64,000 nt of DNA from Eledone cirrhosa (lineage: Eukaryota), in contig OZ024743.1 of the NCBI GenBank assembly GCA_964016885.1, positions 149,668,001 to 149,732,000 of the forward strand, in the 5' to 3' direction. The notes beneath the pieces are model-generated. The model saw only the letters and a program-made list of their open reading frames with translations. It did not search any database and was not told the DNA's origin. The position numbers were made by a program, and so were the translations under genes. Numbering within the stretch: the stretch's first letter is position 1; every line of letters begins with the position of its first letter. Shown piece after piece: positions 1,881-9,920 of this stretch.

Positions 1881-1924
<44 letters not shown>

Positions 1925-2166
1925 AATGTAAGTATGCATGTATACGTACATACATATATGTATACAGACGTACAGTAGCATGCACATATATATATATATA
2001 TACATATATATATACATATGCATACAGGTACACATACATATATGCACGTATCAGTTTAGCGGCGCTAACGTCGCTTTGTTCGTTTGTAAACAAACTGAAC
2101 AGCCTGAATTTATGCCATACGGTGTTAAGGCAACCACGTCACCTTTTTGTTCAACACTGACACAGG

Positions 2167-2211
2167 AACGATGTACTAGTTTCAAGCTTGTTAGCTATCA
2201 TCAGCACCGTT
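2167..2211 (-). ncRNA. Minimal type I hammerhead ribozyme (further minus copies at 2633-2677, 3099-3143, 3565-3609, 4031-4074)
   Basis: aacggtg CTGATGA t agct aaca agct t GAAA ctag TA catcgtt: 7-bp stem I, 4-bp stem II, palindromic stem III (ACTAGT), GUA cleavage triplet. Confidence 0.9.
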
Positions 2212-4178
2212 TACCCATCTGCCAGATAGTTGAACGTTCGAAAGTATATACTTTACTTATGAAAATTAACGGCTGAGCAGCCTAATTTGCATATTGAGTG
2301 AGTTAAATCGGTCAGGCATACCGAAAACGATAAATTGAAACAAAATGAAAACGAAATTTCATTTCTCACTCTTAGTATGGCACTTACTTAAATGTAAGTA
2401 TGCATGTATACGTACATACATATATGTATACAGACGTACAGTAGCATGCACATATATATATATATATACATATATATATACATATGCATACAGGTACACA
2501 TACATATATGCACGTATCAGTTTAGCGGCGCTAACGTCGCTTTGTTCGTTTGTAAACAAACTGAACAGCCTGAATTTATGCCATACGGTGTTAAGGCAAC
2601 CACGTCACCTTTTTGTTCAACACTGACACAGGAACGATGTACTAGTTTCAAGCTTGTTAGCTATCATCAGCACCGTTTACCCATCTGCCAGATAGTTGAA
2701 CGTTCGAAAGTATATACTTTACTTATGAAAATTAACGGCTGAGCAGCCTAATTTGCATATTGAGTGAGTTAAATCGGTCAGGCATACCGAAAACGATAAA
2801 TTGAAACAAAATGAAAACGAAATTTCATTTCTCACTCTTAGTATGGCACTTACTTAAATGTAAGTATGCATGTATACGTACATACATATATGTATACAGA
2901 CGTACAGTAGCATGCACATATATATATATATATACATATATATATACATATGCATACAGGTACACATACATATATGCACGTATCAGTTTAGCGGCGCTAA
3001 CGTCGCTTTGTTCGTTTGTAAACAAACTGAACAGCCTGAATTTATGCCATACGGTGTTAAGGCAACCACGTCACCTTTTTGTTCAACACTGACACAGGAA
3101 CGATGTACTAGTTTCAAGCTTGTTAGCTATCATCAGCACCGTTTACCCATCTGCCAGATAGTTGAACGTTCGAAAGTATATACTTTACTTATGAAAATTA
3201 ACGGCTGAGCAGCCTAATTTGCATATTGAGTGAGTTAAATCGGTCAGGCATACCGAAAACGATAAATTGAAACAAAATGAAAACGAAATTTCATTTCTCA
3301 CTCTTAGTATGGCACTTACTTAAATGTAAGTATGCATGTATACGTACATACATATATGTATACAGACGTACAGTAGCATGCACATATATATATATATATA
3401 CATATATATATACATATGCATACAGGTACACATACATATATGCACGTATCAGTTTAGCGGCGCTAACGTCGCTTTGTTCGTTTGTAAACAAACTGAACAG
3501 CCTGAATTTATGCCATACGGTGTTAAGGCAACCACGTCACCTTTTTGTTCAACACTGACACAGGAACGATGTACTAGTTTCAAGCTTGTTAGCTATCATC
3601 AGCACCGTTTACCCATCTGCCAGATAGTTGAACGTTCGAAAGTATATACTTTACTTATGAAAATTAACGGCTGAGCAGCCTAATTTGCATATTGAGTGAG
3701 TTAAATCGGTCAGGCATACCGAAAACGATAAATTGAAACAAAATGAAAACGAAATTTCATTTCTCACTCTTAGTATGGCACTTACTTAAATGTAAGTATG
3801 CATGTATACGTACATACATATATGTATACAGACGTACAGTAGCATGCACATATATATATATATATACATATATATATACATATGCATACAGGTACACATA
3901 CATATATGCACGTATCAGTTTAGCGGCGCTAACGTCGCTTTGTTCGTTTGTAAACAAACTGAACAGCCTGAATTTATGCCATACGGTGTTAAGGCAACCA
4001 CGTCACCTTTTTGTTCAACACTGACACAGGAACGATGTACTAGTTTCAAGCTTGTTAGCTATCATCAGCACCGTCTGACCGATTTAACTCACTCAATATG
4101 CAAATTAGGCTGCTCAGCCGTTAATTTTCATAAGTAAAGTATATACTTTCGAACGTTCAACTATCTGGCAGATGGGTA

Positions 4179-4223
4179 AACGGTGCTGATGATAGCTAAC
4201 AAGCTTGAAACTAGTACATCGTT
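4179..4223 (+). ncRNA. Minimal type I hammerhead ribozyme (further plus copies at 4645-4689, 5111-5155, 5577-5621)
   Basis: Same motif read directly on plus: aacggtgCTGATGAtagctaacaagcttGAAActagTAcatcgtt. Confidence 0.9.
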
Positions 4224-6018
4224 CCTGTGTCAGTGTTGAACAAAAAGGTGACGTGGTTGCCTTAACACCGTATGGCATAAATTCAGGCTGTTCAGTTTGT
4301 TTACAAACGAACAAAGCGACGTTAGCGCCGCTAAACTGATACGTGCATATATGTATGTGTACCTGTATGCATATGTATATATATATGTATATATATATAT
4401 ATATGTGCATGCTACTGTACGTCTGTATACATATATGTATGTACGTATACATGCATACTTACATTTAAGTAAGTGCCATACTAAGAGTGAGAAATGAAAT
4501 TTCGTTTTCATTTTGTTTCAATTTATCGTTTTCGGTATGCCTGACCGATTTAACTCACTCAATATGCAAATTAGGCTGCTCAGCCGTTAATTTTCATAAG
4601 TAAAGTATATACTTTCGAACGTTCAACTATCTGGCAGATGGGTAAACGGTGCTGATGATAGCTAACAAGCTTGAAACTAGTACATCGTTCCTGTGTCAGT
4701 GTTGAACAAAAAGGTGACGTGGTTGCCTTAACACCGTATGGCATAAATTCAGGCTGTTCAGTTTGTTTACAAACGAACAAAGCGACGTTAGCGCCGCTAA
4801 ACTGATACGTGCATATATGTATGTGTACCTGTATGCATATGTATATATATATGTATATATATATATATATGTGCATGCTACTGTACGTCTGTATACATAT
4901 ATGTATGTACGTATACATGCATACTTACATTTAAGTAAGTGCCATACTAAGAGTGAGAAATGAAATTTCGTTTTCATTTTGTTTCAATTTATCGTTTTCG
5001 GTATGCCTGACCGATTTAACTCACTCAATATGCAAATTAGGCTGCTCAGCCGTTAATTTTCATAAGTAAAGTATATACTTTCGAACGTTCAACTATCTGG
5101 CAGATGGGTAAACGGTGCTGATGATAGCTAACAAGCTTGAAACTAGTACATCGTTCCTGTGTCAGTGTTGAACAAAAAGGTGACGTGGTTGCCTTAACAC
5201 CGTATGGCATAAATTCAGGCTGTTCAGTTTGTTTACAAACGAACAAAGCGACGTTAGCGCCGCTAAACTGATACGTGCATATATGTATGTGTACCTGTAT
5301 GCATATGTATATATATATGTATATATATATATATATGTGCATGCTACTGTACGTCTGTATACATATATGTATGTACGTATACATGCATACTTACATTTAA
5401 GTAAGTGCCATACTAAGAGTGAGAAATGAAATTTCGTTTTCATTTTGTTTCAATTTATCGTTTTCGGTATGCCTGACCGATTTAACTCACTCAATATGCA
5501 AATTAGGCTGCTCAGCCGTTAATTTTCATAAGTAAAGTATATACTTTCGAACGTTCAACTATCTGGCAGATGGGTAAACGGTGCTGATGATAGCTAACAA
5601 GCTTGAAACTAGTACATCGTTCCTGTGTCAGTGTTGAACAAAAAGGTGACGTGGTTGCCTTAACACCGTATGGCATAAATTCAGGCTGTTCAGTTTGTTT
5701 ACAAACGAACAAAGCGACGTTAGCGCCGCTAAACTGATACGTGCATATATGTATGTGTACCTGTATGCATATGTATATATATATGTATATATATATATAT
5801 ATGTGCATGCTACTGTACGTCTGTATACATATATGTATGTACGTATACATGCATACTTATATTTAAGTAAGTGCCATACTAAGAGTGAGAAATGAAATTT
5901 CGTTTTCATTTTGTTTCAATTTATATATACATATATCTACATATATACATATATGTGTATATATATATATATAATATATGTATATATATATATATATATA
6001 TATACATATATTCATATA

Positions 6019-6116
<98 letters not shown>

Positions 6117-6158
6117 TAAATGTATATATATACATATATGTACATATGTATATATATA

Positions 6159-7054
6159 CGAGGGCAATCCTAAAAGTAAGGTCTCCAAAGCGATGTGGAC
6201 GCAGAGAAACTGTTCGTACGGTTGTTGGCAACACTGTTGTAATTGGTGCTTCCTTCACTCCCAAACAAGCATGCGCCCGCTTCGCTGGGATGCTCAATCT
6301 TAGCTTGGCAGCCGTTGAGAGTAGAGCTCCCGTTGAACGCTACCGCCCAGTGTGACTTCGCTCAGTTATTCGGTTTCTGAACGTAAAAGGCATTGAACCG
6401 ATTGAAATTCATCGGCAATTGACGGATGTGTATGGACAGTCGTGCATGGATGTCAAAAACGTTCGCAAGTGGTGTAGAGAGTTTACTGCCCGTCGTACTG
6501 AAATTCACGACGAACAAAGGAACGGGAGACCGTCAATTTCCGACGAGACAGTCGCAAAGGTTAAGGAAAACATGCGCACACCTTCTGATATTGCAACTTT
6601 TCCGTTAAAATCCTGTGGATGCTGTTTCGGGAAACATCAGGAACCAAAATGCAGAGAGCATCCAGAGTGATCCGCCGATCTTTACTCATGTTTTCCTCAA
6701 CCTTTGCGACTGTCTCGTCGGAAATTGTCGGTCTCCCGATCCTTTGTTCGTCGTGAATTTCCGTACGACCGGCTGTTTATACACTTCCGTCAATTGGCGA
6801 TGAATTTCAATCGGTTCAACGCCTTTTGCGTTCAAAAATCGAATAACTGAGCGAACTTCGCACTTGGCGGTAGCGTTCAACGGGAGCTCCATTCTCATCG
6901 GCCGCCAAGCCAAGATTGAGCATCCCAGCGAAGTGCGCGCATGCTTGTTTGGGATTGAAGGAAGCACCAATCACAACAGTGTTGCCAACAGCCGTACGAA
7001 CAGTTTCTCTGCGTCCCCATCGCTTTGGAGACCTTACTTTTGGGATTTCCCTCG
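6159..7054. mobile_element. Mariner-derived fold-back element (two inverted copies of a mariner 5' end), TA-flanked
   Basis: TIRs cgagggcaatcctaaaagtaaggtctcc / ggagaccttacttttgggatttccctcg; both arms encode a decayed N-terminal HTH (EVRSVIRFLNAKGVEPIEIHRQLTEVY; VRKWCREF...DEQRNGRPS). Confidence 0.88.
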
Positions 7055-7210: not shown

Positions 7211-9371
7211 ACTGTTTTAATTGACATACACAACACACCAACAGATTCCAAACACTACCTGCTATTCACCCCCAACCATCGAAAGCACACGAAGATGAAC
7301 ATCCCATTTAACCTAGTAAGAAGAATTTTCACAATTGTCTCCAATTATGAAACGCGAAATAAAAGACTTCAAGAATTAAAGGAAATTCTGCTCGAAAGAC
7401 AGTACCCACCATTACTAATAAATAATGGAATAGGAAGGGCTAAAGCAATAGGCATTGATGAATTACGAAAACAGAAACAAATTCAAGGTACGTCCAATAT
7501 TCTATCATATATCTCAACACACAACCCAAGAAATGCGGAAGCTTAAAACATTATTCACAAGAATATCCCACTATTGAAACAAGACCCAAGAATGGAAAAA
7601 GCCCTTGAAACACAAAATAATCAAAAGCAAAAGACAACCAAAATCACTAAAAACATTACTCACCAATGCCAAATTACCTACCACAAACCCACAACCAACT
7701 GTCAAAAAATGTGGCCGCTCTAATTGTGGAACCTGCACTCACCTCATTGAAGGCAACATGTATACATTTCAATCAGGACCAAATTTTGCTGTAAAAAATC
7801 ACTTCAATGCTCATCAAAAATTTAGTTTATGCCATTAAATGTAAAGGATGCAATGAAGATTATATAGGACAAACTAAACTCACACTCAGAAACAGAATGA
7901 CAATTCATCGCCAACAATTACGAGACCCTACCACAAGACAGATACCACTCGGTGCCCATCTAGACATATGCGGAAGTAATAAGACACCCAAATTCCAGGT
8001 CTTCCTATTTTATCTTTGCGCTGACAATACAACAGAACAAATACGAATAAATAAGGAAAATATGTTTATTCAAAAATATAAACCAGCATTAAATATAGTT
8101 TAATATACATTACGTCAACACCATAACATGCTAACCATCCAAACAGACACATACATACACACACACACATAACATCTTCTATTTTCGAAAATAAAAGCCA
8201 GAGCTAAATAAACCTTAACATAAGTTAATACTCTAACACCTTAACATGCTAAGCCCCCCCCCCATACACACATAACTCCGTCCCCCATTTCTACTAACGG
8301 AATCATTTTCCTACACTAGGCACTCACACACACAAAAATATATATATTCTCTCCATCTTAATATACTAACCATACTCACACACATATAACACCCGTATAC
8401 ACAACTCCCTCTCCCATTTCTACTAATAGAATTATCTTCCTACACACACACACAAGCACACAAATAAACATACATATCTCTGCTTTCTTTATTTCAATAG
8501 AAAGACTGAATTTTGACACCCCAGCACACCAGCCATATTCACTGAACCAGAACAATTCTCCCCATCCCGTTTTTCTTGACCATTATCTTTTGTTTGGCAC
8601 AACATTCTCTACATATCTACAAAAGAAATTCCCAAATACGGGCGCGAAATTTAATGTACTTGTTCACGTGACAGTCATAATTTCATTTATAACCAATCAA
8701 ATTACATTTCAGCACTGATCCAGAACAACTCTTTCCATCCCTTTTTCTTGACCATTATCTTTTGTTTGGCACAACATTCTCTAAATGGCTACAAAATAAT
8801 TCCAAAATACGGGCGCGAAATTTAATGTACTTATTCACGTGACAGTCGTAATTTCATTTATAACCAATCAAATTACATTTATAAAAAAAAGCCTTCGTGA
8901 GCCACTTTTTTTGTAAGTAAAAACAAATTCAAACACAAACTGACGCGAAAGCTGATGTGCTTATTCACTCATATATAAAAAACAATCTGAGCCCCACTTA
9001 CCTTTTTTGAAGGCAAATATAATAAGAACTTTGTAACGCGAAGTGGCGCGAAATTTATTATACTTATTCACATGACAGTCATCAACCAACCAAATTACTT
9101 CTCTAAAAACCTAGCATTTCGAGCCTCTTTTTCCCATATAAAACAGAAGTAACATTCAAACAGCAACCAGATGTGAGAAAAACCACAAACCCTCCATCTC
9201 AATTCTACTTTTGGAAAGCACAAGAAATGCGAAACCGGTAAAGGAACCAAATAAATATATTTAAAAAAAAAAGACTCGAGTTGCATTTTCAATTTCATCT
9301 TTTTCCCTTATACTTTCACTCGTGTAGGACACCTCGTTTTTCTTCATTTTGGAAAAAAAAACTCACTTTCT
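7211..9371 (+). mobile_element. 5'-truncated Penelope-like retroelement (RT thumb, Cys linker, GIY-YIG endonuclease to 8103, ~1.27-kb 3' region); Neptune-like
   Basis: TDSKHYL..NH.KH.KMNIPFNLVRRI, CGRSNCGTC, NLVYAIKCKGCNEDYIGQT..LRNRMTIH, KYKPALN; stops and frameshifts; internal ~170-bp duplication 8540-8880; ends in (TA)n. Clade call is from motif memory. Confidence 0.88.
9207..9245 (+). ncRNA. Degenerate hammerhead remnant near the PLE 3' end
   Basis: ctt TTGGAAA gca caagaaa tgc GAAA ccgg TA aag: stem II, palindromic stem III and GUA retained, 5' core mutated. Confidence 0.45.
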
Positions 9372-9547
9372 AATATATATATATATATATATATACATAT
9401 ATATATGTATATATATATATATGTGTGTGTGTATATATGTACATATATGTATATATATATGTGTGTATATATATATATACACATAAATATATATATATAT
9501 GTACATATATATATATATGTATATATATGTGCATATATTTATATATA

Positions 9548-9920
<373 letters not shown>

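Follow-up and report, generated by a model that had tools for sequence, protein, structure and literature searches.

A young two-armed hammerhead array in Eledone cirrhosa as the probable footprint of a retrozyme insertion primed on both strands of a (TA)n target, likely by a Penelope-like element

The 64,000-nt window of Eledone cirrhosa DNA analyzed here contains a tandem array with a period of 466 bp, of which 2,152 bases (positions 1923-4074) are followed directly by a further 1,850 bases (4075-5924) of the same repeat as its reverse complement. The first arm (1923-4074), with its ribozyme sense on the minus strand, comprises 4.62 units and extends from an inner end at monomer position 430 to an outer (3') end, termed site A, about 251 nt past the ribozyme cut. 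The second arm (4075-5924), with its ribozyme sense on the plus strand, comprises 3.97 units and extends from monomer position 325 to an outer (3') end, termed site B, roughly 310 nt beyond the cut, such that the array has site A at its left and site B at its right border. Since the ribozyme sense is directed outward from the junction, it is the 5' ends of the two arms that meet there. The inversion junction itself (4074/4075) shows no microhomology and occurs once in the genome. The tail between the two sites, about 58 nt in length (5866-5924, plus strand), terminates arm 2 but not arm 1. The array is flanked by (TA)n-type target tracts on the left (1209-1922) and the right (5925-6158), and any target-site duplication is unreadable because both array ends lie within (TA)n. 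The units carry no private mark, and the sole difference among them is a C>T change at 5860 (plus strand); it was rejected as a trace of site A, as 1 of 60 B-terminal units carries such a change. The original prediction of about 8.6 units of 466 bp differing at one SNP, of a strand flip at 4074/4075 and of (TA)n at both ends is thus confirmed in full for the assembled sequence.

The window also houses several other elements. At 660-1205, there is another two-armed hammerhead element in TA, with a core at 965 (minus strand) and an extra tail of ~60 nt on its left arm only. A fold-back element with inverted ends (6158-7050) encodes a helix-turn-helix-like frame, which we take to resemble a mariner transposase. 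A decayed copy of an autonomous Penelope-like element (PLE) at about 7260-9372 retains the end of the reverse transcriptase (RT), the GIY-YIG domain and a 3' end with a B tail running into TA, this end being 86% like intact copies. Copies of a short family that targets TA, is likewise two-armed and has A and B ends of its own are found at about 9600-9775 and 62340-62590. An older, ribozyme-less two-armed piece of the 466 family lies at 48464-48956, where the minus strand carries an arm ending at B and the plus strand carries stem pieces ending at A. Hammerhead-like cores of other families were observed at 23734, 28085-28695, 31335, 32272-32279, 36181, 38818, 47766 and 52930, several of them as opposite-strand pairs.

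Within the array, hammerhead cores start at 4186, 4652, 5118 and 5584 on the plus strand and at 4068, 3602, 3136, 2670 and 2204 on the minus strand, with predicted cuts after GUA at 4216, 4682, 5148 and 5614 (plus strand). In arm 2, the type I hammerhead at 4179-4223 (plus strand) is repeated at +466, +932 and +1398, and in arm 1 that at 3565-3609 (minus strand) is repeated at -466, -932 and -1398. A further copy at 4031-4074 (minus strand) is clipped by the junction: it retains the core and 6 bp of helix I and has lost the 5' side of loop 1. Hence, the nine hammerheads previously proposed are all present as cores, but the one at 4068 is not intact. Helix I is 6 to 7 bp long, helix II has 4 bp closed by a U.U pair (G-C in a 465-nt sister family) and helix III has 2 bp with the palindrome ACUAGU, which agrees with the palindromic stem III noted before. 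The earlier label of a minimal hammerhead has to be dropped: in the account given in PMC4209133, the minimal form is the one without helix III, and by the definitions stated there the 466-unit motif is, as judged from its sequence, a canonical metazoan type I hammerhead with predicted action as a dimer. The minimal hammerhead of PLEs (min-HHR), with no helix III, a long helix II and a short helix I, was likewise rejected on the basis of the canonical helix sizes. A two-pair, palindromic-loop helix III is shared with the dimer-active hammerheads of amphibian satellite 2 and axolotl as described in PMC7229834 and PMC4209133, and by analogy the palindromic helix III would permit tandem transcripts to adopt an active fold as dimers. 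Eight of nine Xenopus retrozyme dimers were uncut according to bioRxiv 10.64898/2026.07.22.740005.

An Rfam search returned zero matches at the gathering score, with HH9 reached only at an E value of 0.089, and no match to other ribozyme classes. Given this subthreshold score, the hammerhead is identified from the letters of its core and from covariation. Across 8 sequences drawn from the 466 family, the 465-nt sister family and a 310-nt family, a small and related set, 8 of the 12 pairs have changed on both sides, a count reached in none of 500 shuffles. The lineage-level change in the core within the 466 family affects the free position N7, and the hammerheads of the family that were listed cross the cut site with single substitutions at most. 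A core scan of the window detected no hammerhead core on the opposite strand of the 466 unit, which, along with the lack of an Rfam match to other ribozyme classes, does not fit a viroid-like replicon with ribozymes in both polarities.

The reference monomer, taken from cut to cut (4217-4682, plus strand; 466 nt), has a GC content of 0.36, is noncoding and lacks LTRs. Its longest stop-free frame is 114 aa, and in the absence of a reading frame for RT plus GIY-YIG it is not an autonomous PLE. As a circle, it is predicted to be highly paired (z of -7.6 against 40 shuffles), with helix II stable and helix I only partly formed. Each unit contains one long AT-rich stem-loop (4335-4459, plus strand, in the reference unit), which is the site of the inherited A>G changes considered below. 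A transcript crossing the junction is predicted to fold upon itself (521 of 574 bases), and as it would fold back in this way, monomers would need transcripts that start inside one arm; on this model, such transcripts could release at most four monomers in the case of arm 1 and three in that of arm 2. Every unit also bears an octamer-like ATGCAAAT (4098-4105; monomer position 348), 80 bases upstream of the ribozyme. We presume from the precedent of newt satellite 2 that ATGCAAAT may be part of a promoter; a literature search did not confirm this. The 465-nt sister retrozyme family, which we observed at L151:7490-8985 in a B/A two-armed layout, preserves the ribozyme and the fold via compensatory changes, and its monomer has the same set of stems as the 466 monomer despite many changes.

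When up to two mismatches are allowed, a hammerhead 39-mer is matched 14,829 times in the 3.0-Gb genome (reversed control, 0) and a 34-mer from the tail 17,571 times (control, 0). The closeness of the two counts indicates that no larger family shares the tail. The 466 family is thus a dispersed, high-copy family of monomers to multimers, and these counts, together with a type I hammerhead in each noncoding tandem unit, support the proposed retrozyme footprint. We sampled it through 20 loci from a BLAST list and, on chromosome 1, the first 50 clusters in which the 39-mer occurs exactly, the latter set being biased toward young copies with arms long enough to include the ribozyme. As many as 31 of these 50 chromosome-1 loci are two-armed in the polarity of the window (5' to 5'), and the strand flip is a rule of the family rather than a rarity. 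The array in the window is real and young, and nothing sets it apart within this very large family, whose class is known. Arm lengths in the sampled loci have a median of about one unit and reach 12 to 16 units. Within pairs, they correlate with a rho of -0.31 (n = 36), and there is no sign of the equal arms expected if two enzymes followed one another around a single circle. One locus (L055:1986-5440) has the reverse polarity, an A-ended and a B-ended arm pointing their 3' ends toward one another with 1.25 kb of TA-rich DNA in between.

The outer ends of the arms fall at two positions past the cut, A at about 244 to 252 and B at about 305 to 310, and merge into (TA)n via a few shared letters. 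Among 48 arm pairs, 12 have one end unresolved; the 36 with both ends resolved, namely, 13 from the BLAST set (including the window and one doubtful nested pair) and 23 from the chromosome-1 set, are without exception A+B, with no A+A or B+B pair and no outer end at the ribozyme cut. A further 35 loci recovered with the stem motif were classified by eye; 18 are clean A+B pairs, none is A+A or B+B, and the remainder are single, cut off or ambiguous. The completed locus L100 is also A+B. The inner ends, in contrast, are scattered and mostly joined with 1 to 7 shared bases: 21 of 31 measurable junctions overlap by at least 2 nt, against a null of 17%, and that of the window shares none. The loci with one A and one B end support the suggestion that priming occurred from both target strands, and these fixed outer ends across the family, together with the uniqueness of the window junction, also support the view that the array was written in one recent event. 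In L1 twin priming, both target strands likewise prime and a 5'-to-5' inversion with short microhomology results; there, the second start depends on chance annealing, and each arm represents a different part of one linear RNA. The 466 insertions differ from this in that both starts are fixed and the arms copy overlapping sequence. An L1-type event does not fit, as the inner ends of the B arms are scattered instead of lying at site A.

Four chimeric loci pair a 466 arm with a terminal piece of another TA-targeting family. Two of these (L058 and L079) are A+B and two (L059 and L097) apparently B+B, one of the latter bearing the autonomous PLE's own end, and in none is there a remainder of the partner family on the far side. 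The partner arms in L058 and L079 are pieces of the short two-armed family seen in the window at about 9600-9775 and 62340-62590. The chimeras imply that one RNA is not required and that the A/B rule is not absolute across families. They suggest, as far as their sequences go, a shared machinery with two RNAs serving one event; nested insertion with deletion is a possible alternative.

An intact PLE family in the Eledone cirrhosa genome codes for a 775-aa frame with RT and a GIY-YIG domain, the latter assigned by Pfam. Its 3' end shows, in order, a hammerhead-like motif with a U3-A8 core (L149:6900-6950; assigned by eye), an A end, a tail and a B end, with 64 bases from A to B and both ends inserted into (TA)n. 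Among 10 loci, seven of eight two-armed insertions are A+B, and one (L153) is A+A. A BLAST search of the 466 unit against 40 loci of this one family, in a genome that holds 31,095 RT candidates, revealed no homology between the two and retrieved only nested copies and the sister family. Being nonhomologous to the unit, this PLE family is a candidate partner only. The PLE tail (L149) and the 466 tail have in common a 12-letter U-rich word, possibly by chance. PLE insertions have been described as having an inverted 5'-truncated copy, a tail at one end and a preference for (TA)n (PMC8557442), and all three features of this footprint are present in the 466 family. The account in PMC11167929 further has the purified PLE protein, predicted to be a dimer, cutting and extending both strands and initiating at a pair of internal RNA positions that delimit the tail, with uncleaved RNA as its main substrate in vitro and ribozyme cutting dispensable.

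With regard to the template, of the 99 5' ends that could be resolved, just 2 are no farther than 10 nt from the cut, where chance alone would place about 5, and 86 of 111 arms run past it, 42 by more than a unit. The scarcity of ends near the cut and the passage of most arms beyond it indicate a template that is continuous at the cut site. Rare variants, defined as rare within about 70 sampled loci, are fixed within a single locus in 31 cases, 11 of which extend to both arms, compared with 188 changes confined to one unit, and two-armed loci have almost no variants common to only some of their units. At L068, the stem has acquired 13 extra G's that are identical in three adjacent units, and a 35-mer of this pattern is found nowhere else; L171, of the same lineage, has further G's fixed in five units. 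Such a pattern is expected from one changed monomer copied round and round; for L068, a later DNA duplication or a parent absent from the assembly is also possible. At L067, both arms start from the same tail and the terminal stems match while the inner stem differs, which indicates that some templates were multimers. A young array at L031:3293-4719 has stem lengths of 36/42/36, with the middle unit variant, for which a dimer-circle template or repeated slippage is possible. The stem variant of the window, with 2,044 genome matches, cannot settle the nature of the template. Two other candidates for private marks were discarded, the extra G of L094 being a lineage of 616 matches and the 3' pattern of L057 having 13 matches. 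Repeated copying of a monomer, as envisaged in the original prediction, is therefore favored indirectly by read-through of the cut and by the L068 and L171 stems; the chimeras indicate that a pair of arms may also stem from two RNAs.

The changes in the AT-rich stem are biased in a strand-specific manner. On the ribozyme strand of 60 multiunit loci, distinct stem changes shared by at least two units comprise 18 A>G and 4 T>C (P = 0.004, with runs collapsed and ancestral G's excluded), the events being not fully independent because lineages are nested. The corresponding counts are 13 versus 16 for unit-private stem changes shared nowhere and 95 versus 97 for the flanking TA tracts. Weighing against such a bias of the inherited stem changes are the counts of 37 versus 17 for all unit-private stem changes and 9 versus 5 for fixed changes outside the stem (P = 0.29). 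Pure (TG)n runs were rejected as products of editing, as they occur mostly in one unit and reflect slippage, and the stem changes were recounted with clusters collapsed since such runs also grow by slippage. We take ADAR editing to be the simplest cause of the unit-shared A>G changes; a rival explanation is that selection favored G.U pairs in the stem at the expense of A.C pairs. Either of these alike implies an RNA step.

On balance, we consider it probable that the array arose in one recent insertion of a noncoding retrozyme, likely by a PLE RT/GIY-YIG enzyme priming on both strands of (TA)n and most likely from a 466-nt circle. In the scenario we propose, tandem units would be transcribed, their hammerheads would cut after GUA, probably as dimers, and the monomers would be ligated into circles. 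A PLE dimer would then cut both strands of (TA)n, each active site starting at one position, A or B, and roll along an endless template, as suggested by the lack of a pileup at the cut and by arms of 12 to 16 units. The inner ends of the two cDNAs would be joined by microhomology-mediated repair, and ADAR edits (or changes from G.U-tolerant selection) on the RNA would become fixed in all units of the daughter array. Weighing against this scenario are the in vitro preference of the PLE protein for uncleaved RNA, the uncut Xenopus dimers, the multimeric template at L067, the four chimeric loci, the A+A insertion at L153 and the lack of a positive link between arm lengths. The most specific form of this reading, wherein a PLE dimer with one fixed start per strand rolls a single ADAR-edited 466-nt circle into two arms and writes the edits into every unit, is advanced here tentatively, with somewhat less than even confidence.

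The same enzyme and two-strand priming could instead act on a long transcript that had escaped cleavage and came from a young array of uniform units, so that no circle is needed and DNA-level events even out and lengthen the arrays. We regard this as unlikely, though it draws on the dominance of uncleaved RNA as the PLE substrate in vitro in the account of PMC11167929, on the multimeric template at L067, on old arrays (L036 and L048) with many unit-shared variants that are a sign of DNA-level amplification and on the 2,044 matches of the window stem variant, from which it follows that uniform parents exist. It is countered by the L068 pattern, which fills three units and is parentless in the assembly, by the further A>G changes fixed in five units at L171 and by the near absence in two-armed loci of variants common to only some units; moreover, with median arms of about one unit, long arrays would have to be regenerated. 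The template might also be a cut linear monomer, with the enzyme running to its 5' end and then jumping, time after time, to a 3' end that belongs either to this monomer or to a different one. Such jumps would account for uniform units, and the chimeric insertions indicate that the enzyme or repair does join different RNAs; however, arm ends are not in excess at the cut (the 2 of 99 noted above), and the family hammerheads listed read through it with single substitutions at most, the 14,829 matches being those of a cut-spanning 39-mer, which makes this route quite improbable. Least probable, and by our estimate very much so, is an array made without an RNA step, either as a satellite through unequal exchange and fold-back inversion or as an assembly expansion. 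The units are indeed identical, and the junction at 4074/4075 is spanned by no contig from two sequencing runs that contain the 466 family. Against it are the dozens of loci with identical polarity and outer ends and differing junctions, the strand specificity of the A>G bias, the uniqueness of the window junction in the genome and the depth of the family in an independent sequencing run.

The element, whose insertion we read as probably PLE-driven, agrees with the metazoan non-LTR retrozymes of coral, mussel and axolotl (PMC7229834) in its low-GC, noncoding tandem units of hundreds of bases with a type I hammerhead. As portrayed in PMC7229834 and bioRxiv 10.64898/2026.07.22.740005, these retrozymes also have thousands of copies and a highly paired predicted circle, and PLEs are proposed as their mobilizing partner; both the retrozymes with their circles and the hypothesis of PLE mobilization are hence already described. 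The RNAs measured in PMC7229834 are 170 to 400 nt in length, whereas the unit here, a DNA repeat of 466 bp, exceeds that range and falls within the 51 to 972 bp of the vertebrate survey in bioRxiv 10.64898/2026.07.22.740005. The sections of those retrozyme papers that were consulted describe neither the two-armed layout nor the fixed A/B ends nor any A>G marks. Endonuclease-bearing PLEs, as presented in PMC8557442 and PMC11167929, share with the 466 family the inverted 5'-truncated copy, the one-sided tail, AT-rich or (TA)n targets, two internal start sites and a hammerhead upstream of the tail. The 466 element differs from them in lacking RT and endonuclease, in its many short tandem units and in a tail of about 58 nt rather than the 30 to 40 nt given in those accounts; further, the start site is alike on both strands in the in vitro work of PMC11167929, whereas the genomic pairs here use one site per arm per event. 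The literature searched contains no report of retrozymes with two-strand priming, editing (at the level of titles and abstracts) or chimeric inverted insertions, and older PLE papers may detail the one-sided tail.

With an element of known class and thousands of further copies in the genome, the locus is unremarkable in itself. Published proposals have PLEs mobilizing animal retrozymes from circles, and the footprint described here supports this mechanism, which has been proposed but not demonstrated; published work likewise leaves unsettled the origin of the inverted copy and the one-sided tail. The A+B rule common to the retrozyme and the intact PLE family, together with the A>G marks, makes these proposals precisely testable, the RNA being small and well defined, its start sites predicted and the candidate enzyme intact. 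If an edited circle is indeed rolled by a PLE dimer, the genome would hold thousands of natural records of the rolling-circle retrotransposition of animal retrozymes, the one-sided tail of PLEs would be explained as a two-site, two-strand start and RNA editing would be a major source of heritable change in this parasite.
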